Source: a virus. Taken from it: a stretch of 64,000 nucleotides of DNA. The notes beneath the pieces were generated by a model, which searched no databases, had not been told where the DNA came from, and was given only the letters and a program-made list of their open reading frames with translations. The translations under genes and the position numbers were made by a program. The stretch lies in the UHGV virus genome UHGV-0038492. One strand, given 5' to 3'. Positions 16,438-42,496 of the stretch are shown piece after piece (the stretch's first letter is position 1; every line of letters starts with the position of its first letter).

Positions 16438-16444
16438 TCACATA

Positions 16445-16479: not shown

Positions 16480-16520
16480 CTCAGATATATATTACCTTAG
16501 TGAGATTACACAGTAATCTC
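16480..16520 (+). promoter_or_regulatory. conserved promoter-like motif TCAGATATATATTACCTTAG followed by a 5' hairpin
   Basis: the same ~19-nt motif recurs at 38019 and 42447, with a variant at 21778; AT-rich upstream, TATATT -10-like core. Confidence 0.45.
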
Positions 16521-16555
16521 TTTACGACTTGTTCTACAGATTAGGATTAAATATC

Positions 16556-16915
16556 ATGGCTTACAATCACAACTCTATTGTTTTAGCAAAACGTAAATTC
16601 GGTCTTCATCTTTCTTACGTGATTCGTCATTTGACAGCGAAAGACATTACACAGCGTGAACTTGCCCAGCTTGCGAAAGTTTCACAGCCGGTTATTTCAT
16701 CTATTAAGAACGATCATAGCGAACGCCTGAGTCTACCAATAATGATGAAGGTTGCTGATGCAATTCGTCTGAAATATCAGATTACGTTTAATTCTGTTAA
16801 AGGGCGTTGCTCAGTAACGGTTCACGTAGAGTCTGCGTTGGACTACGTTGCAAATACGTCCCTTAAACGTACAGCGAAAAATATTCGTTTTGTTACTAAC
16901 AGCGCAACACACTAA
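16556..16915 (+). CDS. helix-turn-helix DNA-binding protein (putative transcriptional regulator)
   Basis: ITQRELAQLAKVSQPVISSIKN resembles an XRE/Cro-type HTH; ATG at 16556. Confidence 0.45.
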   Translation: MAYNHNSIVLAKRKFGLHLSYVIRHLTAKDITQRELAQLAKVSQPVISSIKNDHSERLSLPIMMKVADAIRLKYQITFNSVKGRCSVTVHVESALDYVANTSLKRTAKNIRFVTNSATH

Positions 16916-16936
16916 TCAACCTAAAGGAGTATTATC

Positions 16937-17620
16937 ATGGCACCGAAAACTAAGAAAACTGAAGTTAAAGAAACTGTAGAAAAGCCGACTGATACTAAGG
17001 AAGCGGAAGTTAAGCAGACTGGGCCTAGCAAGAAGCTTGCGCTTATGCCACCCACCACAGAAATACACGGGGATAAAATCTTAAGTTACACTCCGCGCGC
17101 GAGTTTAACGATGGATATTTACCATTACCCGGTATTCGACCTGTACACGCTTGTCTGTCGACTCGACGATGAGATACTGGCAGTCGTTCCAGGTATCCAC
17201 AAAGAAAAACTGCTTACGGGTTCAGTCATTAGCGAGATTTTCCTGCGCTTGATGTTTAAATCAGACGATAAGATGATCAGCCAGATTGCTAGTAAATTGA
17301 CTGACTTCTTTGTTGAGGCTTCAACGTGGTTAGGCTTTCACCCAACGGCTTATTTCATTTTCGACACCAAAATGTTGTATGCTGAAATGGGCGATAGCGT
17401 TAAGTATCCTATCTTGCTTAATGAAGAAGTCGTTCCGTTTTCCCTTACCAGTCCTAACAAACATCTTCGCTTTCATCCTGCGTTAGAAAACCTGATTGAA
17501 TACAATCGGTTGGAAAAATATTACGCTTATCATCGCATGTTCTTTGAACTTCTGCGTGATAAATTAAGAGGCAAAGTTCCAGATTCTAGTGCAGCATTCA
17601 CTAGTTCTAAGCTTTGGTAG
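16937..17620 (+). CDS. hypothetical protein with Lys-rich N-terminus
   Basis: AAAGGAG upstream of ATG. Confidence 0.6.
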   Translation: MAPKTKKTEVKETVEKPTDTKEAEVKQTGPSKKLALMPPTTEIHGDKILSYTPRASLTMDIYHYPVFDLYTLVCRLDDEILAVVPGIHKEKLLTGSVISEIFLRLMFKSDDKMISQIASKLTDFFVEASTWLGFHPTAYFIFDTKMLYAEMGDSVKYPILLNEEVVPFSLTSPNKHLRFHPALENLIEYNRLEKYYAYHRMFFELLRDKLRGKVPDSSAAFTSSKLW

Positions 17621-17632
17621 TTTGTAACAAAC

Positions 17633-17660
17633 AGGGAGCTTCGGCTCCCTTTTTCTTTTT
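17633..17660 (+). terminator. intrinsic terminator
   Basis: hairpin agggagc-ttcg-gctccct plus T-run. Confidence 0.65.
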
Positions 17661-17706
17661 ACAACTTTTTCTTTTGTTGTGAGGAAAGCCGATAAGGAGT
17701 ATTAAA

Positions 17707-18693
17707 ATGGTATATCGTAAAACGATAGAAAGAACCTCTTCTGATTTAACCGTAGGACGCTTAACCCGTAGAGATATTCGCAATCCTCAGCTTCAGGCAT
17801 GTTTAACGGGGCCTAACGGTGCGGTGATTCGAGAAGCACTGTGTAATACCGAGCTGAATACGTTCTCTTTACAAAAAGGAAAAACAATCCAAGGGTTTAT
17901 CATCACAAAACACATTTACGGCGACCCAACGTTACACTGCTTGTATATGCACGAAATTGTACCTGGGTGTTTGAACAAACTGAGCCTTCTATTGGTACTT
18001 GACTATACGGGTTTTACGTACCTTAACCGAATTGCCAGAGGTGTGGAAGAAATCGCCGAGCTTAACGATTTAGGGTTTAGACATACCCACACAGCATATC
18101 GTTTAGGTACACGTAAGTTACTGGATGTCACTTTACCGACGAACGTGAAGAACGTCTCCGACGACTTCTATAAAGACTTAACCGGAGCACAACGTGAACA
18201 GCTTATGATGTTGCTTGGCACTAGCGTCGTTGAAAACATCAATGCTGACCCTGTAACGCGTTCTCGACAAATAATGCCACAAGTTGAAACATTGGTGGAA
18301 TTAGTGCGGCACGTCAATCACTACACTTACGTTTGGATGGACGGTAATGACGTTGTGGGTGTGGTGCAAGTTAAATCACGCAATCTTAGCGAGTGCGAAC
18401 TAAAAGCCATTGCGGTAAGTGAAACACACCGGGGCCGTGGGATTGGGCGTGCGTTGTTGTACCGTGCTTTACAGATTGCATCGACAACAGCGGCACCATT
18501 AGAAATAGGGTGTTACAATAACAACCCAGCATTTAGACACCTGGCCGTAGATTTGTTTAAATTCCGTCCCTACGAGTACGAATTTGTTTTAGTGCGCGAC
18601 GACGATGTCGTCAGTTGGGAGCGTCGGAAAAACCGCGTCGAGTTAGTGTTAGGCGACGAAATGTCATCGTTACAAGGCGGAATTAATGCATAA
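17707..18693 (+). CDS. protein with C-terminal GNAT acetyltransferase domain
   Basis: ELKAIAVSETHRGRGIGRALLYRALQIA matches GNAT motif A; ATAAGGAG upstream of ATG. Confidence 0.5.
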   Translation: MVYRKTIERTSSDLTVGRLTRRDIRNPQLQACLTGPNGAVIREALCNTELNTFSLQKGKTIQGFIITKHIYGDPTLHCLYMHEIVPGCLNKLSLLLVLDYTGFTYLNRIARGVEEIAELNDLGFRHTHTAYRLGTRKLLDVTLPTNVKNVSDDFYKDLTGAQREQLMMLLGTSVVENINADPVTRSRQIMPQVETLVELVRHVNHYTYVWMDGNDVVGVVQVKSRNLSECELKAIAVSETHRGRGIGRALLYRALQIASTTAAPLEIGCYNNNPAFRHLAVDLFKFRPYEYEFVLVRDDDVVSWERRKNRVELVLGDEMSSLQGGINA

Positions 18694-19501
18694 ACCAATT
18701 ATAAAGTGGATGGGTGGCAAATCGCGGATTATCGACACCTTACTACAAGTCTTACCTGAACGTACCACTTTCGTTGAACCGTTTGTTGGCGCAGGGTCAG
18801 TGTTTTTGAACACACGTTATAAACGTTACATTCTTGCTGACTCTAACCCTGACTTAATCCAGTTGCTGAATGTAGCGAAAGACCAACCTGAAGAACTTAT
18901 CTTGAAGTCGAAACCGCTATTCGAAGACGGTAACGATTGTATTAAGTATATGGAGAGACGAGAACTGTTTAATCGCGAAACGGATATGGCTCCGTTAGAC
19001 CGGGCAGCAATGTTTCTGTACTTAATGCGTCACGGTTTTAACGGGATGTGTCGTTACAACGGCAGCGGGGGTTTTAACGTTCCGTTTGGTCGCTATCCTA
19101 ACGGTGTGTATTACCCGTTAGAAGAGATTCGTGGTTGGGCTAAACGTTGTCAAGAACCGGAATACTTAGAAATTGTTTGTGAAGATTTCCGAACAGTTTT
19201 AGAGCGTACGCCGGAAGACAGTGTGATTTACGCAGACCCACCGTATATACCGCTCTCAGAGACCGCTAAACACGCGCAATACCATCGGAAGGAGTTTTCC
19301 CAGGCCGACCATCGGGAACTCGCCAGAGCGCTGTTTAAGCAGGTTGAGAAGGGGAATAGCGTTGTGTTGTCCAATGCGGATACGTTACTAACGCGTGAGA
19401 TTTATTACGGGTTCGAATGGCGTTCTGTGGAAGTTGGCCGATACATGGGTGCGTCAGGTGCTGCTCGTAAAACGGTAACGGAATTGTTAGGAGTGCTCTA
19501 A
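18686..19501 (+). CDS. dam: DNA N6-adenine methyltransferase (Dam-like)
   Basis: IIKWMGGKSR, FVEPFVGAGSVF (motif I) and ADPPY (motif IV). Confidence 0.8.
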   Translation: MHKPIIKWMGGKSRIIDTLLQVLPERTTFVEPFVGAGSVFLNTRYKRYILADSNPDLIQLLNVAKDQPEELILKSKPLFEDGNDCIKYMERRELFNRETDMAPLDRAAMFLYLMRHGFNGMCRYNGSGGFNVPFGRYPNGVYYPLEEIRGWAKRCQEPEYLEIVCEDFRTVLERTPEDSVIYADPPYIPLSETAKHAQYHRKEFSQADHRELARALFKQVEKGNSVVLSNADTLLTREIYYGFEWRSVEVGRYMGASGAARKTVTELLGVL

Positions 19502-20274
19502 TGCGTATAGTGGATATCCACGATTATCGTAATGACCATTTAGCGATTGGTGTAGAAGGTAAGATGGTTTCGTTAACCCGTGTACGCAAAGGGTTAATGG
19601 AAAAGGAGATCATTCGGGAGTCCGAAGACCCTACCTTTATCATCCTTTCGAACACTAATCAGTTACAGGGCATCTTTTCAGGGCGTGCTGACGGTAAGAT
19701 TTTCTATATGTCCGCAATCGTTGTGTTTGCGAAGAAGAACATCAACTTTGCCCAACTCAAACGTTTGTTAAACGTGAAGATGTTTGATGTCACCTACCCT
19801 GCTAATGACCTAAAACGTCGTGATCAGTTAATGGCGTTTTTGGGTATGCAGCCAACGTCAATCGATTATGACCTTACGATTACTGAAAAGCCGGAAGTAC
19901 GTACTGACTTACCTGACGTGGTCGACGTTGAATCCCTAACGTTAGAAGAGACGTTTACGATTCCTAAGGTTGTTAATGTCAACCTGGACACGCACTGTTT
20001 AGGGTTGTTAGCCGTAGGTGCAGCAGAAGGGTTGTGTTGTCGTAAAGACGGTAAGGTTGAAGGAATCTTAGTCTATTCGAAAATCAACGAAAAGACGTTT
20101 GCCACCGAAGGCTTTTTCTATAACGACTGTACTTACGGAAACGCACTACTAACCACGTATTTCCGTATTGCTTATCTGAAAGGCGCAACTGTACGCCTCA
20201 CGTTTCCATACACAGCTCCACCGTCTATGGGTGGAGTTGAGGTAGAACCATTAACCGGCCACTTTATCTTTTAA
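19501..20274 (+). CDS. hypothetical protein
   Basis: 257-codon ORF with overlapping stop/start. Confidence 0.6.
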   Translation: MRIVDIHDYRNDHLAIGVEGKMVSLTRVRKGLMEKEIIRESEDPTFIILSNTNQLQGIFSGRADGKIFYMSAIVVFAKKNINFAQLKRLLNVKMFDVTYPANDLKRRDQLMAFLGMQPTSIDYDLTITEKPEVRTDLPDVVDVESLTLEETFTIPKVVNVNLDTHCLGLLAVGAAEGLCCRKDGKVEGILVYSKINEKTFATEGFFYNDCTYGNALLTTYFRIAYLKGATVRLTFPYTAPPSMGGVEVEPLTGHFIF

Positions 20275-20283
20275 GGATGATGA

Positions 20284-20511
20284 ATGGAAATCAAACGTAT
20301 TGTAACCAAAAACAAACAGATTGTTTACGTCGCAGGTGATAACGAATTCTCGGCGGTAATCAACAGCGAAAATGTGCTCGTTATCGGTTATCCGGGTAAA
20401 GTTATTACGCGCAGTCACCAACGTGTGATTGACAAACTTATCGCAAAAGCGAAAGCGCGTGACGGTGTTGGTTCAGTACAAACCCACACGGGGTTAACGC
20501 TGGCCCTCTAG
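20284..20511 (+). CDS. small hypothetical protein
   Basis: 75-codon ORF in the operon. Confidence 0.45.
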   Translation: MEIKRIVTKNKQIVYVAGDNEFSAVINSENVLVIGYPGKVITRSHQRVIDKLIAKAKARDGVGSVQTHTGLTLAL

Positions 20512-20550
20512 TCAGCAGGTAATATGACCTCTTAACTGGAGACTTTAATA

Positions 20551-21057
20551 ATGAGTGAGACTCTGGATTTTAATCAGCTCGAACAACACGATTTCGACCT
20601 CGGTGTTCGTGATATCGATGCTGATCATGAAACACGTTGTAAAGAGCTGTTTAACCGTTACGGTCAGCTCATCACCGGTGCCTCTGATGACACCGAATTC
20701 AGTTTAGATGAGTTTGAAAAAGTTCTGTCGTGTTTTATCACTGACTGTCTGGCGAAGAAAGCGTTGCTGGTCGAACTGAACTTAGACTCCGTCGAACCTA
20801 CTGATGCCCATGCGGTGTTGAAAGAATCCATTATCCCAACTGATGAGATTATGGACACTGTCGCAGGTATTCGCGGTACGTTTGAAACTGCCGTAGAAGA
20901 ATACACGGAACAGCTTCGTGAATCAGGACTGACGTTGTGTGCGCCAGCAGGTGAGCCTTTACCGTCCGACGAAGAAACTGAAGAAGCGCGTAGTCGCTTA
21001 GCGCGTTATGTTATTACGTCTATCTTGGTAGATGATCGCGAAGAGAATCTGCTATAA
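20551..21057 (+). CDS. acidic hypothetical protein
   Basis: 168-codon ORF with SD-like GGAG upstream. Confidence 0.55.
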   Translation: MSETLDFNQLEQHDFDLGVRDIDADHETRCKELFNRYGQLITGASDDTEFSLDEFEKVLSCFITDCLAKKALLVELNLDSVEPTDAHAVLKESIIPTDEIMDTVAGIRGTFETAVEEYTEQLRESGLTLCAPAGEPLPSDEETEEARSRLARYVITSILVDDREENLL

Positions 21058-21061
21058 GCTG

Positions 21062-21099
21062 CCCCTCTCTCCGTTTGGAGAGAGGGTGTATTTATTTTT
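21062..21099 (+). terminator. intrinsic terminator
   Basis: hairpin cccctctctcc-gttt-ggagagaggg plus T-run; near-identical stem to 22109. Confidence 0.65.
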
Positions 21100-21155
21100 A
21101 CGCGTATAGCCGTAGTTATGCACAAGTAAACAAAATTAATTGAGGAAACAATCTG

Positions 21156-21473
21156 ATGTGGTTAAGTGCTATTCACCGTGATTTGCCAAAACGTGAAGTG
21201 TCGTTTACTGTTGAGGACGCACCGATTGAGGTAGGCGTCGCGAAATTCGAAAGAATCGAAGAAGGGCAGTTTGTTGTAATGGATGACAACGACAACGAAT
21301 TTATGTTGTTCCATCCGGAAGTTGACACGTCTGAAATTTGTGACGGTGTTCTTTTGTTGTCTTGGCAAAACCCTGAAACCAAAGAATGGATGTGGTGTGT
21401 TGCTAAACCGACAAATGAAGCCGAAACTGCATACGTGTTTGGGGAAATTTATGTCGAGCCAGAACCGCACTAA
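21156..21473 (+). CDS. hypothetical protein
   Basis: GAGGAA upstream of ATG. Confidence 0.55.
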   Translation: MWLSAIHRDLPKREVSFTVEDAPIEVGVAKFERIEEGQFVVMDDNDNEFMLFHPEVDTSEICDGVLLLSWQNPETKEWMWCVAKPTNEAETAYVFGEIYVEPEPH

Positions 21474-21762
21474 TACTGATGAGTCCAATATACAGCGCTT
21501 GCAACGGGCACTAACTGCGCCTCTAGGCGGCGAGATTCACGATCGTTGGGTAATTGCGAGGGTGGTAGAGATTGATTATTCTCAGGGACAGTTAATGTTA
21601 AATAACTGCTCGACGAACGTGCCTTTCACGTTACCGCGCGATATATTCCGTCTTACGCCCAACGTTGATGAAATACTGACAATTGACAGGAAACTTCTAT
21701 CGATAGAACTTCAGCATTTCCCCCTGCCTGGTAAGTCGGTTAACATTGCTTTGTCCAGTTAA
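21451..21762 (+). CDS. hypothetical protein
   Basis: internal ATG at 21451 of the longer track ORF; overlaps the upstream gene by 23 nt. Confidence 0.4.
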   Translation: MSSQNRTNTDESNIQRLQRALTAPLGGEIHDRWVIARVVEIDYSQGQLMLNNCSTNVPFTLPRDIFRLTPNVDEILTIDRKLLSIELQHFPLPGKSVNIALSS

Positions 21763-21777
21763 CGGTCTAAAAAATTT

Positions 21778-21817
21778 AAGATATATTTCATCTATGTGAG
21801 AATTCTCACTTAACTAA
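21778..21817 (+). promoter_or_regulatory. variant of the ATATAT promoter-like motif plus hairpin and TTAACTAAA
   Basis: agatatatttcatctatg followed by hairpin gtgagaattctcac then ttaactaaa, as at 42466. Confidence 0.35.
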
Positions 21818-21832
21818 ATGGAGTAATCTAAA

Positions 21833-22102
21833 ATGGCTAAGATTTACATTGTTGAAAAACGTTCAGGTAATGTTATTTCTTATCACGAAGAAGGTAAACC
21901 TGAAAAAGTTAAAACACTCAAGCTTGAAGGTTTTGATGTGAAAAGCCTGCGTAAAGGCGTGAAGATTACTTTCAAAGGTTTGATTCGTGCAGGTAACTTA
22001 CACATCATCAAAACAGATGGAACGATGGTTGCGTTAGCACCGGCTACCGCTGCGAAAACGACAGCCGGTCGTGGTTGCTACGGCAGCAGTCGTAAGTTTT
22101 AA
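21833..22102 (+). CDS. small hypothetical protein
   Basis: 89-codon ORF with GGAG upstream. Confidence 0.5.
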   Translation: MAKIYIVEKRSGNVISYHEEGKPEKVKTLKLEGFDVKSLRKGVKITFKGLIRAGNLHIIKTDGTMVALAPATAAKTTAGRGCYGSSRKF

Positions 22103-22108
22103 GCAGTG

Positions 22109-22148
22109 CCCCTCTCTCCGCTAGGAGAGAGGGTACTTTTATTTTTCT
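22109..22148 (+). terminator. intrinsic terminator
   Basis: hairpin cccctctctcc-gcta-ggagagaggg plus T-run. Confidence 0.65.
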
Positions 22149-22160
22149 TCGAGGTGTGTG

Positions 22161-22649
22161 ATGACAACGGTATTAGTAACAAAGGATTACATTTTAGCCG
22201 ATCGGTTGGTTGATTACGGCGGTACAGTTAAAGAGCTTCCTAAATTACACAAATACAAAAACAAATTCGTTGTTTACACTGGGGAACGTGTATTGGACTC
22301 TGATCTCTGGAAAACGATGATAATGTCCGCAGCAGAAAAATATTTAATTGAAGAAAAGCGAACTAAGGTTGAAGGGATATTTAAAGATCTTATCGAAAAA
22401 GAACGACTTTTCGATCAGGTTATTATTTTTACAGCTAAGGAAACGTTTTGGCTAGGGTTGGTAGCAGATAAATTTGAAGCCCACACATTGAATAAAAACA
22501 CGGTTTGGACAACGGGTTCAGGTCAAGGTTTTGCTCGAGCAGCATGGGCATCAGGCATAGCCGAAAAGAATATCGTCCCCTTAGTAGGTTCGATCGATAC
22601 AGCGACATCACAGTCTTACGACTTGTTTTACAGGAAGCATTTACGATGA
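22161..22649 (+). CDS. hypothetical protein
   Basis: ATG at 22161 preceded by GAGGTG. Confidence 0.55.
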   Translation: MTTVLVTKDYILADRLVDYGGTVKELPKLHKYKNKFVVYTGERVLDSDLWKTMIMSAAEKYLIEEKRTKVEGIFKDLIEKERLFDQVIIFTAKETFWLGLVADKFEAHTLNKNTVWTTGSGQGFARAAWASGIAEKNIVPLVGSIDTATSQSYDLFYRKHLR

Positions 22650-23167
22650 AAATAAATGCGGTTTTAATTGGCGAAGAAATATTCGTGAATACAAAAACAC
22701 AATACTTGTGCTACGAAGGCATTACTGTAATAGATGACTATTACGGTAAGTACGGTTGGTGGATTCCGTCACCTAACTCTTTGCGATTAGAAGAAGCAAT
22801 AACTGCCGAAGAAAACAAACTGGATGATGAATGGACTTATATCAGCTCCGTAATTGACGTTAGCGGACGAATTAAAGACGTCTTCTGGGCTAAAGGTATA
22901 GGGTGGCGTGTTACGCTACATCAAGCCACACCGGTAAGATTGTTGTACGACCACACTGACACTTCGGAGTTAGCGTTTACCATTGAGACGCTCTCAGTGC
23001 GTAAAGATTTAGATAACGTAGGTAAAGGGAAGTGGTCGATTGAACGTATAGAGGAAATTCTCAGTCACTTTAAAGCCAACAACCAATTTAAACGTTGGTG
23101 TACGCTACCTGAGTTAGTAGAAGAGTTGAAAAAGCGGGATTGCAAGCCGCTACCTTTTAATCCGTAA
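22646..23167 (+). CDS. hypothetical protein
   Basis: ATGA stop/start overlap at 22646. Confidence 0.55.
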   Translation: MKINAVLIGEEIFVNTKTQYLCYEGITVIDDYYGKYGWWIPSPNSLRLEEAITAEENKLDDEWTYISSVIDVSGRIKDVFWAKGIGWRVTLHQATPVRLLYDHTDTSELAFTIETLSVRKDLDNVGKGKWSIERIEEILSHFKANNQFKRWCTLPELVEELKKRDCKPLPFNP

Positions 23168-23211
23168 CTTTTTACGAATGCAGCTATTTTAATGATTAGG
23201 AGAATATAGAG

Positions 23212-23607
23212 ATGACAGCAATACTAGGTGTAATGGCAAGAAAAGCCGACATCATTGAAACGTTTATTGAGCAATACAACAACTCGCCGTATACGCGTTT
23301 TAGATTACATAAACCGAAGAATAGTACAGAATGGGTTCGCTGGTTCAGGATTTGGGATAAAACAATAAGTAAAATTGATCCGTTATTTAGAATAACGGTT
23401 GAACCTGCTTATTGGATTGTAATGGAAATTTCGCTATTACGTATTATCGAAAAACGTCCGATTGACACTATGACGATGTTTGGGAAAGATACGTATAAAA
23501 TGTTGACCAATGGTTTTGTGGGTAATGGGGAACACACGTTGTATCAGGCGATGCTGGAAATGTGTTTGTTCGATTTAGTTACTTACGAATTGGGGATTTC
23601 AAAATGA
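23212..23607 (+). CDS. hypothetical protein
   Basis: TAGGAG upstream of ATG. Confidence 0.55.
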   Translation: MTAILGVMARKADIIETFIEQYNNSPYTRFRLHKPKNSTEWVRWFRIWDKTISKIDPLFRITVEPAYWIVMEISLLRIIEKRPIDTMTMFGKDTYKMLTNGFVGNGEHTLYQAMLEMCLFDLVTYELGISK

Positions 23608-24068
23608 ATTGCTTCGAATCTAAAGAAATTGTTGAGTTGTTTAAGCAACGTGAGAAAACAACATTCCGTGACCTGTACGATTCCGATTACCGTCCTCTGT
23701 TTGCGGTATTGTTGAAACTGGATAAAGAACCCGAAATCGCACTAGCAGAAGTTCAGCATCATCACATCAGTTTCGTGTTAACTGAAAACAAGGAACGTTG
23801 GGTAGATGACATACTGGGTCGTATTGCGCTTTTGGAAACGCCGCATCGCTGGGAAGTGGTTATTCAGAAATCGTTGTTCCCGCGTGAAGACATTTTCAAC
23901 AATTATCGTCCGAAACAGTATTACAACCACGACGGGTCACCAAAACGTGCTTTTCTGGCACCCCAGCATTTCGTAACCTACGTAACGTTGCGTTACAAAG
24001 ACACCGTGGTACCGTTTGACACCTACCTGGAAATGCGTGAGATAATTTTAGGGAAGAATCCAACATGA
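23604..24068 (+). CDS. hypothetical protein
   Basis: ATGA overlap at 23604. Confidence 0.55.
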   Translation: MNCFESKEIVELFKQREKTTFRDLYDSDYRPLFAVLLKLDKEPEIALAEVQHHHISFVLTENKERWVDDILGRIALLETPHRWEVVIQKSLFPREDIFNNYRPKQYYNHDGSPKRAFLAPQHFVTYVTLRYKDTVVPFDTYLEMREIILGKNPT

Positions 24069-24547
24069 TTCAATTTTCTGTTGACGCAGAAAGACTGGCG
24101 TCGTTTAAAGAACGTGCTCAGTCTGCAACTAAAAACGGCTATATCGAGAAAGGTGTTCGTGATACCTGTAAACTAATTAACGACCATCCGCACCTGGCGA
24201 CAATGTGGAGCTGTGAAGGTCACGGTATGTATTCTAAGTCACCTGGAAATCTGCATATCGTTTTTGCAACAGACGCTATTGGAAGTCAGATTCCAATGCA
24301 GGTTATGTCCGAACTTGCAAAATCGGATTTACCTAATTTTTGGAATCTTAGTTTGTGTCGTCTTTATATACCAGATTCATACACGGATTTGGTATATCTT
24401 GAACCTGACTATGGGCTAAACACCGACGACACGTCTTACTGGGCTTGGAAAATCGGATACATGTGCTTGATTAATCGGCCAGCATTAATTGAGACACGTC
24501 AAGCTCTTTACAAAGCATTTCACACAGTATTAGTTGAGAATAAATAA
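24065..24547 (+). CDS. hypothetical protein
   Basis: ATGA overlap at 24065. Confidence 0.55.
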   Translation: MIQFSVDAERLASFKERAQSATKNGYIEKGVRDTCKLINDHPHLATMWSCEGHGMYSKSPGNLHIVFATDAIGSQIPMQVMSELAKSDLPNFWNLSLCRLYIPDSYTDLVYLEPDYGLNTDDTSYWAWKIGYMCLINRPALIETRQALYKAFHTVLVENK

Positions 24548-25239: not shown

Positions 25240-25241
25240 AC

Positions 25242-25772: not shown

Positions 25773-25971
25773 CGGATATATCATTTCAGCAATCGTTTCA
25801 ACTGCGTTGATTGTAGCGATGTTGATGTTCTACGTTAAGACGTCTGACGAATCACGTAGAGACTCCCTTTATCGTGAATGTATGTCAGGCACTACTGTAG
25901 ATAGCCCACGTTACGCTGAATTAGTAATGGCGTGTACGGAATACGCTAATCGAATGGGAGGAGGGAAATGA
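25759..25971 (+). CDS. small membrane protein
   Basis: single hydrophobic helix ISAIVSTALIVAMLMFYV. Confidence 0.45.
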   Translation: MKINDGYIISAIVSTALIVAMLMFYVKTSDESRRDSLYRECMSGTTVDSPRYAELVMACTEYANRMGGGK

Positions 25972-26539: not shown

Positions 26540-26603
26540 AAAACTTTATCAAAACCTTCCGAAAATCACCAATCGTTCTTGATTTTTAAGTACAGAATAG
26601 TCT

Positions 26604-26648
26604 CCTACCGCCCGATTCTATGGGCGGTAGGTGTTTTATTTTTTTTTC
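26604..26648 (+). terminator. intrinsic terminator
   Basis: hairpin cctaccgccc-gattctat-gggcggtagg plus T-run. Confidence 0.65.
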
Positions 26649-35302: not shown

Positions 35303-35349
35303 TTATCAGTGAGGGGTTCCCCCTCACTGACTCACAAGTACGTTATAAG

Positions 35350-36141
35350 GTGGTTATTTTGTCTGTATCAGCGACTCCCGGATGGATTGGTTCTTCAGCA
35401 AAAGCTGAAGCTGGTAATGGTTGGATGTCTGGCGCGATGCACACACTCGGTGTGCCAGTTCCAGGCTGGATGTCGCAATTGGCGGGAAAATCAAAAGAGG
35501 CTCAGTATTCGATCGGGGCTAATCACAATTACAATAAAGATACGCTTATTAACTATTTACGTTCCATAGGCTCTACTGCTGTCGTTGTGACCATTACAGG
35601 GGATTTAGTGTCTTATAGTAGCGGGGTTCCTTGTTTAGAGTTCCCTAGCAATCTTCCAAATTCGTATATTACCCTCATCATCAATCCTGGGGTTACAGTA
35701 TACGGCAGAGGAGGCAACGGCGGTTCTAACTCACCAGGCGGTGCAGGTGGAACCGCAATACAGAACGGAATAGGAAACAGACTGCGTATAACCAACCGTG
35801 GCGCTATTGCCGGAGGCGGTGGCGGCGGTGGCGGCGGTAACAGGGGTAGACTAATATTTGGTGGTGGCGGTGGTCGCCCATTCGGTGCTGGTGGGTCTTC
35901 CTCTCATATGAGTTCCGGTGCGGCTGCTGGTACTATTTCCGCTCCTGGTAGAGGATCTGTTGGTGAGGGGTCTCTTAGTGCATATACAGGCGGTTCGGGT
36001 GGTAATGTCGGTGCTGGTGGAGGAAGATGTAATACTCATGGTAACGGTACAGAATATAACGGCGGAGCAGCTGGTGCAGCTGTTACTGGTAATGCGCCAA
36101 GATGGGACGCAGTAGGTGCAATATACGGTTCACGTGTTTAA
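35350..36141 (+). CDS. gp38-like tail-fibre tip adhesin with polyglycine motifs
   Basis: N-terminal PGWIGSSAKAEAGNGWMSGA and polyglycine blocks GGGGGGGGGN, GGGGGRPFGAGG; start uncertain (GTG 35350 or TTG 35359). Confidence 0.55.
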   Translation: MVILSVSATPGWIGSSAKAEAGNGWMSGAMHTLGVPVPGWMSQLAGKSKEAQYSIGANHNYNKDTLINYLRSIGSTAVVVTITGDLVSYSSGVPCLEFPSNLPNSYITLIINPGVTVYGRGGNGGSNSPGGAGGTAIQNGIGNRLRITNRGAIAGGGGGGGGGNRGRLIFGGGGGRPFGAGGSSSHMSSGAAAGTISAPGRGSVGEGSLSAYTGGSGGNVGAGGGRCNTHGNGTEYNGGAAGAAVTGNAPRWDAVGAIYGSRV

Positions 36142-36157
36142 TTAAAAAGGAGGGTAG

Positions 36158-36670
36158 ATGGGGGTAGCGTCAGGATGGGTCGGATCTTCAGCTAAGAATG
36201 AAACTGGCCAACAATGGATGAGCGCTGCGGGTAGTAAATTAGGATTGGGTAGACCTTTTATGATGAGCCAAATGGTAGGCAAGTCCGTAGGTTGCAAAAT
36301 AGCAACAGCTTATTATAAAACGTCAAATACTGATAAAGTAGAGAACTGGGGTGCTGTCGGAGCCGATTGGCCGTTGGTAGATAAGAACAAAGGAACGCTT
36401 TCTGGTGCCTCGAACTGTGGCTTAGGACGTTTAGTGGGGATCGTACTTACGCAAGCTCACTACATTTCTGGTGTTCCACCCACTGCGGCTTTATACATCG
36501 CAGGAGGAAGGGCAAGTAATATTACAGTAACAGTTGGTGGTGTTTCGCAAGCATTTACTTACGATAGTGTTATTAACGGTTTTCACTATTATTGGCAAGG
36601 AACGCCTAGTTCGGCCTTTATAGCGGCAATGAAGAAGACGGGTGTTACACAAGATTTGAAAGTTAGCTAA
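36158..36670 (+). CDS. gp38-like N-terminal domain protein (adhesin/chaperone paralog lacking polyglycine blocks)
   Basis: N-terminus GWVGSSAKNETGQQWMSAA parallels 35350; AAGGAGGG upstream of ATG. Confidence 0.5.
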   Translation: MGVASGWVGSSAKNETGQQWMSAAGSKLGLGRPFMMSQMVGKSVGCKIATAYYKTSNTDKVENWGAVGADWPLVDKNKGTLSGASNCGLGRLVGIVLTQAHYISGVPPTAALYIAGGRASNITVTVGGVSQAFTYDSVINGFHYYWQGTPSSAFIAAMKKTGVTQDLKVS

Positions 36671-36828
36671 CTAATTGGGGTAAAACGATAACTAAAACTA
36701 GTAAAATAAGAGTTCGTGAATTCGTAATTCAATAATTTTTTATAGAAAGATTGATTTATTAGAATCGGAGGGGTGCGATGTTTTTAGCCAACATTTTACG
36801 TCTCCCCAATCATAGGAGGTAACCATAC

Positions 36829-37341
36829 GTGGAACAATTCACGCCAGATTTGTCGTTAACTTCACTTAACATGGTTATTTCACTGGTTAACCATGACCTC
36901 CAGCTTGACTTGCAAGAGAACGAGGTTGAAGTCAGCGACGTAAAGACCAGTAACGAAATGGATCGTGACACCACTGCTGTTGTAAAGATAAAACGTCCCG
37001 GTAACAGAACGTTACAAATCTATTACAACCGTTTAACCGCAGAACGTTGGTTAAACCAGCAACCTATTCTGGTGCAAGTAACTGGAGAGGGGTTTAACAC
37101 ACACGATTTAATCGATGCGATTAACGCAGCCTGTGGTAGTAACCTGCAACCCGAAGATCTTCAGGACGATTCATTTACAGTAGGAAAAGACGCTGTAACG
37201 TTACAGGTATCACCTAACTCCCTAAGTTATAAAGGCCAATTCTCTGTTTTGGTTTTTGGTAACGGCGAAGAGGCCGCAGTAACAAAAGATGACAACCTAA
37301 TCGTTACCGCAGATAATCGCGTCTTAACCTTTGGAGGTTAA
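36829..37341 (+). CDS. tail-fibre-associated protein, paralog of 26665..27228
   Basis: GTG start after AGGAGGT; shared PDLSLTS and NAACGSNLQPEDL motifs. Confidence 0.6.
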   Translation: MEQFTPDLSLTSLNMVISLVNHDLQLDLQENEVEVSDVKTSNEMDRDTTAVVKIKRPGNRTLQIYYNRLTAERWLNQQPILVQVTGEGFNTHDLIDAINAACGSNLQPEDLQDDSFTVGKDAVTLQVSPNSLSYKGQFSVLVFGNGEEAAVTKDDNLIVTADNRVLTFGG

Positions 37342-37343
37342 CA

Positions 37344-37964
37344 GTGGCTGAACTGGTAGGAAAGGTACGCATTCACGAGCTACCGTCACTTTCAGAAGAC
37401 ATTACTGGTGTGGTGGTGTTAGCGTCTAAGGAACAAACCGAATACCAACTCCCGATTGAGAATTTAGGGGGTGGTGAGGTTACAGTGAGTCCGTCAGCGA
37501 ATAACATCCTTAAGTCTAACAGCGATGGACTGTTTGTTGATGGCGCACATCCTATTGTACCGAAAATGGATGCAAAAACCTTATCGGGAAATATGGTGGT
37601 AGAAAAAACGCTGACAGGTGGTGCGGTAATCTGCAAAACAACGGTTGACGTTAATAATAGGCTGGGGATTTCGCAATTATCTGGGGTGTCAATTTATAGC
37701 CAGTGCCTGCTGGAAAATAAATTGGTTTACCTGGCAGAAGACGGCAGTATTATTGATGCGTACTTCTACATTAGTAATACAAAGAACACGGCCAGTACAA
37801 TAACCCACACCATTCGGGTTGTCTTAGCGAAAGTACCTTCTAAAGTTGTCGATATCACCGATTTATCTGAAACTGAGGTGCAGTATCAGGATGCTAATTT
37901 GCCTGTTAAGATCGTTATTAAGCATCTTACAGGGACAACACTTTCCCAGAACGGAATGAAATAA
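37344..37964 (+). CDS. short fibre protein with the conserved fibre N-terminal domain
   Basis: N-terminus VGKVRIHELPSLSEDITGVVVLASKEQTEYQ; GTG start after GGAGG. Confidence 0.55.
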   Translation: MAELVGKVRIHELPSLSEDITGVVVLASKEQTEYQLPIENLGGGEVTVSPSANNILKSNSDGLFVDGAHPIVPKMDAKTLSGNMVVEKTLTGGAVICKTTVDVNNRLGISQLSGVSIYSQCLLENKLVYLAEDGSIIDAYFYISNTKNTASTITHTIRVVLAKVPSKVVDITDLSETEVQYQDANLPVKIVIKHLTGTTLSQNGMK

Positions 37965-37969
37965 GTTAT

Positions 37970-38016
37970 AGGTAGTAGGGGCTAAGCCCCTACTACCTTT
38001 CTTTTTTTTTATTTTT
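37970..38016 (+). terminator. intrinsic terminator
   Basis: hairpin ggtagtagggg-ctaa-gcccctactacc plus long T-run. Confidence 0.7.
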
Positions 38017-38018
38017 TC

Positions 38019-38060
38019 TCAGATATATATTACCTAGAGGAGAGCGAAATTTACATTCGC
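38019..38060 (+). promoter_or_regulatory. promoter-like motif TCAGATATATATTACCTAG plus hairpin
   Basis: exact copy of the motif at 16480 and 42447. Confidence 0.45.
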
Positions 38061-38090
38061 TCTATTAGTTATAGCCGAAAGGAGGATTAG

Positions 38091-38942
38091 ATGTATCACC
38101 CGTATTATCTCCCGCACATTCTAGCAAATAGGGACCCTGATTACTACTACGAACAAACAAAAGGATCTTTTAATCGGCTCTACATTCGCGAATTTAATAC
38201 CGATGAAATGACGGACGACCAGTATCTGGAGTATCTAAAAGACCTTTACGGTTTTTCAAAATCGAATAAAGGTGACTTTGGACGTTCCGCAGTCATTAGG
38301 GTTGGTGAATATCGACATTTGGCTAAGCCTGTTACGTATCCTATTGTTACACGCGCCTATACATCGGATAGGCAATATATTGCTGAACTAAAATTTCCTT
38401 TACGGATAGACGGGCCCCAAATTAGCGCTATAGAAGTAGAGATTCAACCAATTGCTGAAGACTATATTGAAGACTACTTCAAGAAAGCTAAAGACGTACT
38501 CGAGGAGGGTTTAAGCTACTCTGAAGAAGGAACGATTTGTCTTCTCTCGTTACTCTCGAAGACTTATGTCACAGCAAATTTCCGTATCTCCGATTCCAGT
38601 AACTACAATACACTTACCCCCTCTAAAACAAAACCTGTTTATTGGGACGATCGGTTAGTCGACAGACAACGCTGGCTTACTATCTTAGATAAAGTAAAAT
38701 TCGAACCCCCTAAACACACCGAAGACGATTTTATTTTATTGCACAACTTTGAACCAATTTATATTCCGACGCATTTTGATCAAGCCTTACGTCATCGGTT
38801 GAAGTATGTGTTGGAATTACGGTACGGAAAGATAAACGGACTAACCTGTTCCGGTGAATTGGGTGAAGAAGAACGCGAGAAGATAAAAATCGTGTTTGAT
38901 AAGTTGGTTGAAGATTACATTAAGAAGGAAGGACAAATATGA
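38091..38942 (+). CDS. hypothetical protein
   Basis: GAAAGGAGG upstream of ATG. Confidence 0.6.
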   Translation: MYHPYYLPHILANRDPDYYYEQTKGSFNRLYIREFNTDEMTDDQYLEYLKDLYGFSKSNKGDFGRSAVIRVGEYRHLAKPVTYPIVTRAYTSDRQYIAELKFPLRIDGPQISAIEVEIQPIAEDYIEDYFKKAKDVLEEGLSYSEEGTICLLSLLSKTYVTANFRISDSSNYNTLTPSKTKPVYWDDRLVDRQRWLTILDKVKFEPPKHTEDDFILLHNFEPIYIPTHFDQALRHRLKYVLELRYGKINGLTCSGELGEEEREKIKIVFDKLVEDYIKKEGQI

Positions 38943-39382
38943 AACCAAATACTACTAATGGCATTATGCTACTTTGTGATTCTGAAACGTTAGCAAACCG
39001 TATTCGTGGTTTGATGGAAGTACGTTGGAAGCAAAAGGTTCGCGTGGACTATGCTGCACCGTTTGTTCACGTTACTTGGTTACCAGAAGCTAACGATTTC
39101 AAAGAAAATATCACCACGAAAAGAATTAAAAATTGGTTAATGGCAATCATTAACAAACAGATTACCGTTATCAATTTCCAGTTGTTCGGTAGTAAAGAAG
39201 AACATGAAACCTTAAAACGCTGTTTAAGGGGATTGGATCTTGCCTTTTCTGTTCGTGGAAACTGTTACACAGCGTTCTTCATCGGTTCTCTTGAGTTATT
39301 TCAGGGAACATTAAACATTCAACTAAAAGAAGATTACGGGATTGTAAATAAGATTGATTTCGAATTCCCAGCAATGATTTAA
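38939..39382 (+). CDS. hypothetical protein
   Basis: ATGA overlap. Confidence 0.55.
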   Translation: MKPNTTNGIMLLCDSETLANRIRGLMEVRWKQKVRVDYAAPFVHVTWLPEANDFKENITTKRIKNWLMAIINKQITVINFQLFGSKEEHETLKRCLRGLDLAFSVRGNCYTAFFIGSLELFQGTLNIQLKEDYGIVNKIDFEFPAMI

Positions 39383-39393
39383 GGAGTAGTAAC

Positions 39394-40236
39394 ATGTTTC
39401 AGTTCGAACTAACCGAAGAAGAAAAGGTTATCAACAAGTTTAAAATTTCCCCTATCCCTACTGAAGAACAAATTAAGGAAATCGCTGAGCTACAAAACAC
39501 GTACACGTTTTACTATAAAGTTAAATCAGAAGCGTTTAACATTTTCTGGGTAGAAGGCGAGGTCGATTTCCCTAACAAGCTCATTAGTGCGGTTATGGAT
39601 ATTTTAGTACGGCCTGTTGAGACGCCTAAAGATCCAGAAATTCCGGATCAAATGACTTGTAGGCTAAAAGACAAGCCAACTGCGAAAGACGTCGCTTACT
39701 TCACAGACGAGATTCTACTTACCCCAAAACAAGCAGGCAAAGTTGAACCAATAATAGACCTTTTTTTCAGTGACGAATTCACTTATGTGGCTGAAGACAA
39801 CAAGCTAAAAGTGAGCTATGAGAGTGCTTGTTGTCACTCTCTTTTAAAAGATCTATTGGAAGACATAGAGGATGAAAGAATTCTGCTATTTACCGTTGAA
39901 AATATTACCGAACTCGATGCTGATGTATTTATCCACGACGTGGATGATGAAATTGGACGTTTTGTAATGGCAATTTGTCAACAAAAATATCTTGAAGGTA
40001 ACTTGCATCTCTTGGTCAAAAACGAACCACGGGTTCTTAAAGTTTTGAAGTCCCATGTACGGAAAATTAAGAGAAATAATGAATTATATAAACGTGTTTT
40101 CGAGAAATACGAAAAGGAAGTCAGACAACGTTTTTCACGCCATTGTTCCGGCTGGTTCGAAAATCACGGTGTGGAACTCGCCCAGCTGTTTGATCAGTTT
40201 TATAATGAGATGAGGAAGATTCAAGATCTTAAATAA
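39394..40236 (+). CDS. hypothetical protein
   Basis: AAGGAG upstream of ATG. Confidence 0.6.
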   Translation: MFQFELTEEEKVINKFKISPIPTEEQIKEIAELQNTYTFYYKVKSEAFNIFWVEGEVDFPNKLISAVMDILVRPVETPKDPEIPDQMTCRLKDKPTAKDVAYFTDEILLTPKQAGKVEPIIDLFFSDEFTYVAEDNKLKVSYESACCHSLLKDLLEDIEDERILLFTVENITELDADVFIHDVDDEIGRFVMAICQQKYLEGNLHLLVKNEPRVLKVLKSHVRKIKRNNELYKRVFEKYEKEVRQRFSRHCSGWFENHGVELAQLFDQFYNEMRKIQDLK

Positions 40237-40322
40237 AGGGTTGAAACCCACTTTCGATAATTATTAAACAGGGGAATTTACCCCCCCCCTCCACATAGAG
40301 TAAATCCCTAAAGGAGCATTAA

Positions 40323-40838
40323 ATGTCTGTAACAATCAACATGAATCTTTATACCAAACGTGAACGTCAAATCTTGGCTAATCAGCCAGGCGTTACTACT
40401 ATCGACGGTAAACCTATCGACCCATTAAAAGTCGTTGTCGCACACAACTGTTTCGAGAAAGACTGGGACATCATGTATTTCCGTTGCCGTTCTGTCGCAA
40501 ACGCACTTACCCAGCTCTCGAATTATCATCCTGGTCCAGTATTAAAAGACTGGGTTTGGTTAGTCCCTAAAACACCTTCAGCGATTGAGTATCCGTCGGG
40601 TATGGTCTATATTCGTCCTGTCGCTTATCCAGAACGTTTAAAAGAATATCTGGAGGTTATCTGGGACCGACCTCGTAAAGAGCTGGTGACGATTATCCGT
40701 TTACTTCAAATGTGCGATATCCCCAATGTTTCGAATCTGAAACTTACGTCTCGCGATGTTAACCAGGCTTACTGGGAACTGGAGTGGACTGAAATGAAAT
40801 TCGAAAACACTAACCGCATTTTCTTGCACCGGGGGTAA
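40323..40838 (+). CDS. hypothetical protein
   Basis: AAAGGAG upstream of ATG. Confidence 0.6.
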   Translation: MSVTINMNLYTKRERQILANQPGVTTIDGKPIDPLKVVVAHNCFEKDWDIMYFRCRSVANALTQLSNYHPGPVLKDWVWLVPKTPSAIEYPSGMVYIRPVAYPERLKEYLEVIWDRPRKELVTIIRLLQMCDIPNVSNLKLTSRDVNQAYWELEWTEMKFENTNRIFLHRG

Positions 40839-40840
40839 AA

Positions 40841-41122
40841 ATGTTAGATTGGTTGTTGGGCTTAATTAACTCACGTCAACAGGAGCTTTATAAAGAAAAC
40901 ACGCGGTTACGGCAGCAGCTTAGTAACAATCGTCAAACCAAACGACAATTAATTCGGATGGTAAAACAACAGGCGCGCTGTATACGCGATATCGATTATC
41001 AGTATCACCGTCTGAATACCTTAGACCCAACAACAAAAGCTTTAGGTAGTACGATTGGACACGCACGTAAAGTCAGTCACGATGCGTTAGTTCGAATCGA
41101 TACAGTCGAAGAGAAACTGTGA
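40841..41122 (+). CDS. small hypothetical protein
   Basis: 93-codon ORF. Confidence 0.5.
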   Translation: MLDWLLGLINSRQQELYKENTRLRQQLSNNRQTKRQLIRMVKQQARCIRDIDYQYHRLNTLDPTTKALGSTIGHARKVSHDALVRIDTVEEKL

Positions 41123-41165
41123 TTAGCTCTCCCTCGGGATTACCGAGGGAGATAAGGCGATTTAC

Positions 41166-41555
41166 ATGATGCGTTTATCTTACATTAAAAGACGTTTGTT
41201 ACTAAAAGCTCAACTGTATGCTAACGGGAAAGTTAAAAACTGGCTATGCGGTGAAAGGGTACAACGTATCGTTAGTGAGGGCGACTGGTATACAGAAATC
41301 GTGGTTTCACCAAACGGTGAGCTTATAAACGTTACTATTCGTGACGTTTTAGTTAAGATTGGCAGGGCAGGTGGCCTGCTGTTTGAATCGGAAACTACAA
41401 AAGTCGTTGCTAAACAATTGAAAGAAGGTCGGGTTATATTCAATGTCACCGCCCAGAAATATTACGACCATTTATTCGAATGTCAACGAGCTTTGGACAG
41501 AATGACCCGTGAGATGCGAAGAATGCACATCACGGAGATCACTATAGGGGTTTAA
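41166..41555 (+). CDS. hypothetical protein
   Basis: 129-codon ORF. Confidence 0.5.
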   Translation: MMRLSYIKRRLLLKAQLYANGKVKNWLCGERVQRIVSEGDWYTEIVVSPNGELINVTIRDVLVKIGRAGGLLFESETTKVVAKQLKEGRVIFNVTAQKYYDHLFECQRALDRMTREMRRMHITEITIGV

Positions 41556-41866
41556 TGATGGAAAGTAAAATCACGAACACAACGACACCTGAGAACATTG
41601 TCAACTACATTCTCAGTGGCGGGTTATTAGAAGACAACAAAGAAACGTGCGATAAACTCGTTTCTCAACTACTGCCGATTCGTTCAGAATACTGCGAAGT
41701 CGTTATCCTGGGTTCTGAGTATTGCGTACGTTCCTACTGTCGTCGTTTCGAAGCCTTACGTGTTCCACGTACGTTAGGTGGCGTGATACTCTTAGTCTCT
41801 AACTTTCACAATGCACACGTTCGTGTTGCAACCTGGATTGCTAACGGTGGTGACAATGGTTTTTAA
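41555..41866 (+). CDS. hypothetical protein
   Basis: 103-codon ORF with overlapping start. Confidence 0.5.
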   Translation: MMESKITNTTTPENIVNYILSGGLLEDNKETCDKLVSQLLPIRSEYCEVVILGSEYCVRSYCRRFEALRVPRTLGGVILLVSNFHNAHVRVATWIANGGDNGF

Positions 41867-42164
41867 ATTGTTAGGTTTCGGAAAATGCAAAGAGTGCGCA
41901 AAGCACGAAGAATATATCAAGTTATTAGAAGAAACGGTTGAAACGCAAAAAGAACTTATCTCTGAATACCGCGCGAAAACCGGTTCAGTGGAATATCTGA
42001 CCATCCTTGTTTGTGCTATTGCTGAATTGGGTTGTGAGGGAAAATTACCTAAAGAAGAGATATTAAAATTATTAAAAGAAAAAACAGAGTTCTACCGTAA
42101 AGAAATTGATGATTATAAACGTGAAGTTATAAGAGCGAATTGGGAGGTTATTAATGAAGCGTGA
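41856..42164 (+). CDS. hypothetical protein with CKECAK motif
   Basis: internal ATG at 41856 of the track ORF; overlaps the upstream stop by 11 nt. Confidence 0.45.
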   Translation: MVFKLLGFGKCKECAKHEEYIKLLEETVETQKELISEYRAKTGSVEYLTILVCAIAELGCEGKLPKEEILKLLKEKTEFYRKEIDDYKREVIRANWEVINEA

Positions 42165-42435
42165 AACAGTTGTATTTCGTAGCAACGGTGATGTGGTTTT
42201 GTATCGTGGTAAGAAACGTATTCGTACGTTAGAATACCGAGAAGCAAAACGTTTTGTTGAAGAGTGTGCATGGTTAATGCATTACGAAGGGAACTATCGA
42301 GCTATCTTAGAAGCACCGCGTTTAGAACGTGCGGTTGCACAGATGGCAATAGGTAATCCTAAGAACTGTTACCTGGCACGTAAGCCAAAATACCTACAGC
42401 GGCTTTCGTTAGGCAGCTTTATTGCTGGATTTTAA
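42154..42435 (+). CDS. hypothetical protein
   Basis: 93-codon ORF. Confidence 0.5.
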   Translation: MKRETVVFRSNGDVVLYRGKKRIRTLEYREAKRFVEECAWLMHYEGNYRAILEAPRLERAVAQMAIGNPKNCYLARKPKYLQRLSLGSFIAGF

Positions 42436-42446
42436 TAAAAATAATT

Positions 42447-42496
42447 TCAGATATATATTACCTAGGTGAGAGTTCAGCTACTCTCACTTAACTAAA
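42447..42496 (+). promoter_or_regulatory. promoter-like motif TCAGATATATATTACCTAG plus hairpin plus TTAACTAAA
   Basis: exact motif copy; hairpin gtgagagt-tcagct-actctcac. Confidence 0.45.

Follow-up and report, generated by a model that had tools for sequence, protein, structure and literature searches.

The subject of this study is an intergenic element that recurs four times in a 64,000-nucleotide stretch of the virus genome UHGV-0038492, the whole of which is called the window below. The large open reading frames (ORFs) of the window encode jumbo-phage virion and tail proteins. Its virion proteins are 73-76% identical to those of SPN3US, Proteus phage 7 and Erwinia phage Asesino, and for a 401-aa virion protein the same 73-76% identity is found with SPN3US, other Seoulvirus, Proteus phage 7, Asesino and phiEaH2. 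A 62-kb stretch is syntenic with the Salmonella jumbo phage SPN3US, the gene order tracking positions ~78-151 kb of that genome, as in the shared succession of thymidylate kinase, promoter and helix-turn-helix (HTH) protein. At the nucleotide level, a megablast search of window positions 16000-24000 against a phage collection returned only 66-nt matches, consisting of a terminator and the motif described here, in two Seoulvirus genomes, and uncultivated relatives from IMG/VR are 86-98% identical to the window. One of these, 3300045988_078609 (97-98% identical over the segments compared), encodes a 1400-aa RNA polymerase (RNAP) β/β'-like protein, 77% identical to that of SPN3US; SPN3US has several such genes, and none lies in the window itself. 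Judging from its sequence, the window belongs to a nucleus-forming jumbo phage that resembles SPN3US and falls within the phiKZ-related group.

The 17-mer TCAGATATATATTACCT is found exactly at 16481, 38019 and 42447, always on the + strand. An earlier note on this DNA had listed exact copies at 16480, 38019 and 42447; the three copies are real, the first lying one base further on and carrying one mismatch to the longer 19-mer, since it ends ...CCTTA in place of ...CCTTG. With up to three mismatches allowed, the 19-mer matches three times in the window against 0.01 expected, and none of 100 shuffles gave three. The diverged copy announced at 21778 was borne out: it reads TAAGATATATTTCATCTATGTGAGA at about that position, aligns to the other copies without gaps at 19 of 25 positions (counted from the sequence) and is recovered at E = 0.0003 by a covariance model of promoter plus hairpin that was built from relatives only. 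With filters off, this model finds exactly four window sites (E = 2e-11, 1.5e-9, 5e-6 and 3e-4); the next match, at 55386 on the - strand (E = 0.07), was rejected, being part of an ORF and bearing no likeness to the motif. The motif scan that the note had called for, run as a position weight matrix (PWM) scan, a mismatch scan and the filter-off covariance scan, yields no further copy in the 64-kb window and at least 12 sites in SPN3US. The four repeats are non-random and the observation is real.

The end of the motif lies ~57, 54, 52 and 36 nt before an ATG, within the 30-60 nt first proposed, and TTAACTAAA does follow the hairpin twice, at 21810 and 42488. As a word, TTAACTAAA shows only marginal enrichment (5 occurrences in the window, 1.5 expected, 4 of 100 shuffles reaching 5), and we treat it as unproven as a separate element; the copy at 42488 may be part of a second small leader hairpin, since CACTTA, in its flank, pairs with TAGGTG. 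The assertion that every copy sits just after a terminator did not hold, a terminator-like hairpin preceding only two of the four (16445-16464 and 37970-37998). The features of the four sites are listed below with their predicted transcription start sites (TSS) and 5' untranslated regions (5'UTR), the hairpin energies and z values being calculated over the initial 30 nt of the predicted RNAs.

16445..16464, + strand: intrinsic-terminator-like hairpin CCCCTACC-TTCG-GGTAGGGG, then a T-rich tail; ends the thymidylate-kinase transcript
16468..16501, + strand: probable early promoter 1, -34 to -1, core CAGATATATATTACCTTAGT; covariance model 58 bits, E 2e-11
16502..16520, + strand: predicted TSS G16502 and 5'-terminal hairpin GAGAUUAC-ACA-GUAAUCUC; -8.2 kcal/mol, z -4.2
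16502-16555, + strand: 5'UTR of site 1, followed by the gene of an HTH DNA-binding protein (16556-16915)
21764..21797, + strand: diverged probable early promoter AAGATATATTTCATCTATGT; 27.3 bits; no upstream terminator
21798..21807, + strand: predicted TSS G21798 and weak 3-bp hairpin; -2.2 kcal/mol, z -0.2
21796-21809: perfect DNA palindrome GTGAGAATTCTCAC, which contains the 21798 hairpin
21810-21818, + strand: TTAACTAAA, followed by the downstream gene (21833-22102)
37970..37998, + strand: strong terminator-like hairpin of 13 bp, then a T-run
38006..38039, + strand: probable early promoter 3, core CAGATATATATTACCTAGAG; 34.7 bits
38040..38063, + strand: predicted TSS G38040 and hairpin AGAGCGAA-AUUUACA-UUCGCUCU (38041-38063); -10.6 kcal/mol, z -4.7
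38091-38942, + strand: gene behind site 3; no family match; present or absent among close relatives
42434..42467, + strand: probable early promoter 4, the perfect clade consensus TTTCAGATATATATTACCTAGGT; 50 bits; no upstream terminator
42468..42485, + strand: predicted TSS G42468 and hairpin GAGAGU-UCAGCU-ACUCUC; -8.4 kcal/mol, z -3.3
42463-42490, + strand: extent of the DNA-level complementarity at site 4, with TTAACTAAA at 42488-42496 and the gene at 42517-43011

The predicted leaders measure 54 nt (16502), 35 nt (21798), 51 nt (38040) and 49 nt (42468), the median in the clade being ~50 nt, and the genes behind them encode, in keeping with early genes, the HTH protein and small proteins that match no known family. 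A scan of the whole window against Rfam gave no match at the gathering threshold. Two other intergenic hairpins, at 40263-40292 and 50684-50710 (GGGGAATTTACCCCCCCCC, CGGGGGGGGGGTGACCTCCCCCG), are built on G/C homopolymer runs; they are terminator-like and of unusual composition.

Early promoters of phiKZ-related phages have been described. The published consensus is TATATTAC in phiKZ, TTTRARR_BTATATTACDWHDGTG in 201phi2-1 and ...TTTCARRYAKATATTATYWAAGTGWA in N1M2/OBP (PMC7058600). In AR9 the early promoter is AAATATATATTAT-(6N)-G+1, and a start 6 nt past the element is found in phiKZ and phiR1-37 as well (PMC5312081). According to reviews, all jumbo phages that encode an RNAP possess an AT-rich element of ~10 nt, centred near -10, ahead of their early operons, and the virion RNAP must be what reads it (PMC7598289). 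The window element, TTTCAGATATATATTACCTAGGT-G, agrees base for base with this published class: in 61 distinct sites, ATATATATTAC, the counterpart of the AT-rich -10 element (TATATTAC / ATATATTAT), is invariant or nearly so from -17 to -7. The exact 16-mer is present in many viral contigs of 220-246 kb, including SPN3US and phiEaH2, and the PWM derived from these 16-mer sites covers 71 distinct sites in the comparison loci (designated by L numbers below), SPN3US and the window. Among the SPN3US sites, 12 of 12 lie on the + strand, each upstream of a ribosome-binding site and start codon; the four window sites are likewise all on the + strand, intergenic, and placed before a ribosome-binding site and start codon.

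Over the 61 sites the consensus runs from A-34, T-32 and A-29 through G+1, A+2, G+3 and A+4, with G at the predicted +1 position in 59 and T at -1 in 50. The predicted starts in the window, G16502, G21798, G38040 and G42468, are the conserved G seven bases past ...TTAC; in SPN3US the corresponding candidate starts lie at about 4446, 56313, 65432, 94258, 114005, 165706 and 223296. The earlier suggestion of a phage-specific promoter class thus agrees with the published early consensus and with its co-oriented, intergenic recurrence in SPN3US-like genomes. The companion statement, that no -35 is conserved and that the upstream region is AT-rich, is right in that no sigma-70 -35 exists, and falls short in that A-34, T-32 and A-29 are conserved, which is more than AT-richness. 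With phiKZ-type early promoters the window element shares the ATATATTA(C/T) core near -10 with its T-rich/A-rich upstream part, the conserved T(-1)G(+1) at the predicted start six bases past the core, the split multisubunit RNAP genes in the genome and the many co-oriented copies before small early genes. It differs from them in the flanks typical of the SPN3US clade (CAGA upstream, CCTAGGTGAGA downstream) and in a covarying hairpin within the first ~20 transcribed bases, present at ~70% of the canonical sites of that clade. From these sequence comparisons we consider it very probable that the repeats are early promoters of an SPN3US-like phage; the promoter is a further member of the known phiKZ-type early class, and we infer its use by the virion RNAP.

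Two further observations concern this promoter class. A variant subclass has GATAGATATTATCT in place of GATATATATTACCT (SPN3US 15610, 72482, 72680, 92536 and 109889; L015 9689; L032 12794); these variants have a low PWM score, mostly have no +1 hairpin and may represent a second timing class. Outside the phages, ATTGAAAATATTTTCAGATATATATTACCTGAGAG lies in an E. coli chromosomal island present in 2607 of 5426 complete genomes, where ~30 nt match the jumbo-phage early promoter, including the upstream A/T element and without the +1 hairpin (L048 9840-9900; L028, L041, L043, L075). There it precedes the genes of two small secreted hypothetical proteins and is adjoined by a patatin-like gene; it could be a coincidence, a captured phage fragment or a decoy.

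The hairpin at the start of the predicted RNA is the second component of the element. Three of the four predicted RNAs of the window have a strong 5' hairpin, beginning at +1 (16502), +2 (38040) and +1 (42468), and the weak one of 21798 begins at +1 as well. Over 63 distinct SPN3US-clade sites, the hairpin of minimum free energy (MFE) begins, relative to the predicted TSS, at +1 in 39, at +2 in 4 and within +3 in 49, with a mean z of -2.0. The arms fit each other: the native mean MFE is -5.83 kcal/mol against -2.95 +/- 0.26 with swapped partners, none of 500 permutations reaching the native value, and 72% of the sites reach -5 kcal/mol or lower against 23% of 257 control windows chosen to share the GAGAKT start. 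In the model-fitted alignment used for the pair counts (62 hits, 54 distinct), 93.7% of the cells are paired, against 72.6% after shuffling and 36-56% in slid controls; seven of the eight stem pairs change on both sides, with 68 compensatory cells against 18.4 +/- 3.4. The 47 strong sites have 27 different 8-mers as their 5' arm. Orthologous 38019 sites have the differing stems AGAGCGAA/UUCGCUCU and GAGUGAA/UUCACUC, and the stem upstream of the HTH gene is GAGAUUAC in the window, GAGAGUU in SPN3US and GCGUU in STsAS. The idea that each copy is followed by a different hairpin kept paired by compensatory changes is accordingly upheld for three strong hairpins and for seven of eight pairs in the clade, and it fails at 21798, where the hairpin is weak.

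What is kept in common is the base of the stem, GAGA/UCU(C/U); the loops are 3-9 nt long and have no common sequence. Internal G·U pairs outnumber A·C pairs by 13 to 3, and the helix opens with a G·U pair in 32 sequences, with G-C in 15. At 47 sites the sense strand gives the better fold, at 11 the antisense strand (-5.51 against -4.40; p = 2e-6). The G·U pairs and the sense bias point to RNA rather than DNA. In MFE folds of -12..+32, outer pairs are often gained upstream of +1; the helix stops exactly at +1 in 22 of 38, and contiguous upstream extension is no commoner than with a shuffled flank, for which reason we rejected an extension upstream of +1 as a general feature. Since the pairing appears to be selected from the predicted RNA start onwards, it lends independent support to both the TSS and a role at the RNA level, and selection on an RNA structure at the 5' end is, on this comparative evidence, a probable conclusion. 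Two sites have a DNA complementarity that runs past +1, namely 42463-42490 (TAGGTGAGAG...CTCTCACTTA) and the palindrome GTGAGAATTCTCAC at 21796-21809; this extension explains why both are followed by CACTTAACTAAA.

The hairpin does not belong to the whole phiKZ family. In 180 kb of phiKZ, 19 TATATTAY-6N-G sites with an AT-rich upstream part have a mean MFE of -2.8, and 21% of these candidate sites reach -5 kcal/mol or lower, which is the background rate; a +1 hairpin as a family-wide property was rejected on this result, and the hairpin is a feature of the SPN3US/Erwinia-phage clade. A few phiKZ early promoters do carry a strong +1 hairpin, one of them (-8.8 kcal/mol; L084 45568-45640) upstream of gp054, the nuclear shell protein. 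Another leader feature, a third conserved box (AAT)YGACYAT at ~+25 to +45 just before the Shine-Dalgarno sequence, is found in ~20 of the 61 leaders, in the SPN3US/Erwinia-phage group (SPN3US 65409, 94235, 113982 and 223273; Erwinia-phage-like loci, e.g. L017, L029 and L077); the leaders of the window are without it. A literal literature search for ATATATTACC found no phage paper, the word 'hairpin' is absent from the phiKZ paper on differential RNA sequencing, and the passages of the 201phi2-1 paper on hairpins, stem-loops or secondary structure contain nothing about early transcripts that begin with a hairpin. A systematic covarying +1 hairpin appears to be undescribed in the literature searched, an earlier description being possible, and appears to be a variant of a known principle.

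The model we favour combines the two components. An extended A/T-rich element made of A-34, T-32, A-29, TTTCAGATATATATTACCTAGGT and G(+1)AGA would be read by a multisubunit RNAP that the virion carries and delivers together with the DNA. Transcription would start at the conserved G seven bases past TTAC and would produce leaders of 35-54 nt before small early genes, and the first 18-24 nt of the transcript would fold into a hairpin of 6-8 bp with an unpaired 5' tail of zero or one base. This 5'-terminal stem-loop would deny the host enzymes RppH and RNase E a single-stranded 5' end, and the early messages would thereby live longer. About half of the cassettes would open with a terminator, insulating them from the upstream operon.

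The requirement of RppH and RNase E for single-stranded 5' termini accounts for stabilising 5' structures (PMC3997798). The likeness to the enterobacterial stem-loop stabilisers of the ompA and papA leaders lies in a hairpin that opens the RNA, leaving no more than 1-2 bases unpaired, and precedes the ribosome-binding site, and in hosts that start decay via RppH and RNase E on single-stranded 5' ends. Here, unlike in that type, the hairpin is tied to a whole phage-polymerase promoter class and not to single genes, and the effect on half-life is putative. The T7 gene 10 leader is another stabiliser of the 5'-terminal stem-loop kind. The role of 5'-terminal stabiliser is favoured because a helix that begins at +1 leaves no single-stranded end for RppH and RNase E. 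A structured leader, as the earlier note envisaged, is therefore supported as to structure by the covariation and by the position at the predicted +1, stabilisation of the mRNA being the function we prefer; the leader as the binding site of a regulator is less likely, neither the length nor the sequence of the loop being conserved. In phiKZ, the protein Dip protects RNA by inhibiting the degradosome (PMC4980113). A tblastn search found no homologue of Dip (phiKZ gp37) in SPN3US or the window, which as weak negative evidence is consistent with a different solution to RNA protection in the SPN3US clade.

Several points weigh against this model. The RNAP gene is absent from the window and the link to the polymerase goes through relatives; the +1 position is itself a prediction extrapolated from the starts of AR9, phiKZ and phiR1-37. 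The covariation statistics are inflated on two counts, since the comparative sequences share descent and the alignment used for the pair counts was fitted to the model. A few sites, 42468 among them, stay complementary for 4-6 bases upstream of +1; at 42468 these are the five further bases TAGGT/ACTTA, and this upstream part could not form in an RNA that starts at the predicted TSS. The hairpin of 21798 has only 3 bp and the low-scoring GATAGATATTATCT-type promoters mostly have none, which means that the hairpin is not obligatory, and the early promoters of phiKZ work without it. Stabilisation is, moreover, only one of several possible functions of a 5' hairpin. Taking the two components separately, we give decay protection as the role of the hairpin about an even chance; for the explanation as a whole, early promoters with a 5'-terminal stabilising hairpin, we would put the probability at roughly 0.6.

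One alternative explanation takes the elements for ordinary sigma-70 promoters of the host RNA polymerase, with TATATT as a strong -10. TATATT does resemble TATAAT, and sigma-70-like matches of 9/12 are found at 21759-21787 and 42432-42459; the two remaining sites (16481 and 38019) have no such match, and with 8 observed against 12.7 after shuffling, and 16 against 16.8, the matches show no enrichment. No TTGACA-like -35 is conserved across the 61 sites, while the conserved CAGA, CCT and GTGAGA, within a conservation that stretches from -34 to +4, are positions that sigma-70 does not read. Phages related to phiKZ, furthermore, develop without host RNAP (PMC7598289, PMC13282480). We rejected this alternative, which the earlier note had kept open beside a phage-specific class, and regard it as very improbable. 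Another alternative is an inverted repeat that acts in the DNA, either as the operator of a dimeric regulator (the HTH protein of site 1, for example) or as an extruded hairpin or cruciform that helps promoter recognition or opening, as in N4. The repeat has a fixed position beside the promoter, GAGAKT...AMTCTC resembles two half-sites, one cassette drives an HTH gene, and at 42468 and a few sites the complementarity enters the promoter upstream of +1; the virion RNAP of N4 uses DNA hairpin promoters. The arms, on the other hand, stand at variable distances of 3 to 9 nt and change together with their compensating partners, so that what is kept is the pairing and not a protein-binding sequence. 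A cruciform would suffer from the G·U pairs, as these become A·C mismatches in the opposite strand, and the sense strand is favoured over the antisense; the helix generally begins at +1 and not within the promoter, and stems of 6-8 bp are short for extrusion. In N4 the promoter itself is the hairpin; it forms in the template strand of the DNA ahead of +1, has a 3-nt loop and is recognised by a single-subunit polymerase. An injected phage polymerase and a small hairpin at its promoters are common to both systems; here the hairpin spans +1 to ~+24, with loops of 3-9 nt and RNA-type G·U pairs, and the N4 arrangement of a DNA hairpin with a 5-7-bp stem and 3-nt loop upstream of +1 was discarded. 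We consider a DNA-level role improbable.

A role in the RNA other than decay protection is a further alternative, which we hold to be unlikely. The hairpin could serve the recognition or export of early messages from the early-infection (EPI) vesicle, offer a site to a phage RNA-binding protein or nuclease that times early shut-off, help the virion RNAP in promoter escape or against backtracking, or be an early attenuator. Early transcription in these phages takes place inside a membrane vesicle, and the exit route of the mRNA is an open question (PMC13282480); 201phi2-1 makes short RNAs by premature termination in 5'UTRs (PMC11512511). The conserved stem base, the 2-4 U that follow the stem in many relatives and the restriction of the hairpin to one clade, expected for a lineage-specific partner and matched by its absence from phiKZ, speak for such a signal. 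Against it, loops of 3-9 nt without shared sequence give a specific protein few features to recognise, GAGA may be conserved simply because the polymerase prefers it as the initially transcribed sequence, and AU-rich stems with short U-runs make poor terminators, two of the three strong hairpins of the window having no U-run. In a more specific and doubtful form, the +1 hairpin would be a clade-specific, cap-like tag on the messages that the injected polymerase makes in the early-infection vesicle, and a phage or host factor would read it for export, ribosome loading or timed destruction; if this were true, it would be an RNA address label bound to one polymerase and one promoter class. The repeats could also persist mainly as recombination cassettes of terminator plus early promoter that shuffle accessory genes, a reading compatible with their being promoters and which we judge rather unlikely. 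The PeSLs (promoter-early stem-loops) of T4 unite a terminator and a promoter in one motif and mediate indels (PMC4122927). Here, 32 of the 61 clade sites and two of the four window sites come after a terminator-like hairpin, whose loop is often UUCG, and half of the sites are without one. The 283-aa gene behind the 38019 cassette (window 38079-38906) is an indel, which the relative L055 lacks and of which L050 retains a remnant; its junctions fall, on the left, in the leader immediately past the hairpin and, on the right, immediately before the ribosome-binding site of the next gene, this being the single indel examined. The same leader, made up of the hairpin GAGATTACACAGTAATCTC and of TTTACGACTTGTT, also stands before two unrelated genes in the lineage of the window (window 16502-16534 against L016 5095-5130, L053 and L004), which suggests duplication or gene conversion of a promoter-leader cassette. 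At about half of the sites a short terminator-like hairpin lies, as in T4, right before an early promoter, is repeated among accessory genes and is found at an indel boundary; the PeSLs of T4 differ in having host sigma-70 early promoters and an upstream stem-loop, the promoter here being of the phage-RNAP type, with an extra conserved hairpin downstream, in the transcript. Only the layout is similar, and an assignment to the T4 type with its host sigma-70 promoters was set aside. Recombination does not explain the compensatory changes in the stem.

The promoter assignment marks four early transcription units in the window, whose genes of host takeover it sets apart from the virion genes that surround them, and supplies an annotation rule for SPN3US-like phages: TTTCAGATATATATTACCTAGGT, then G(+1). 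SPN3US is a genetic model, in which the stabiliser idea can be tested directly, and phage engineering would, if the idea is true, gain a compact part that unites promoter and leader. In the SPN3US clade a built-in 5' hairpin that evolves by compensation goes with nearly every canonical early promoter, and the archetype phiKZ is without it. If the hairpin does protect the early messages, it would be a simple RNA-encoded counterpart to protection by a protein such as the Dip of phiKZ.

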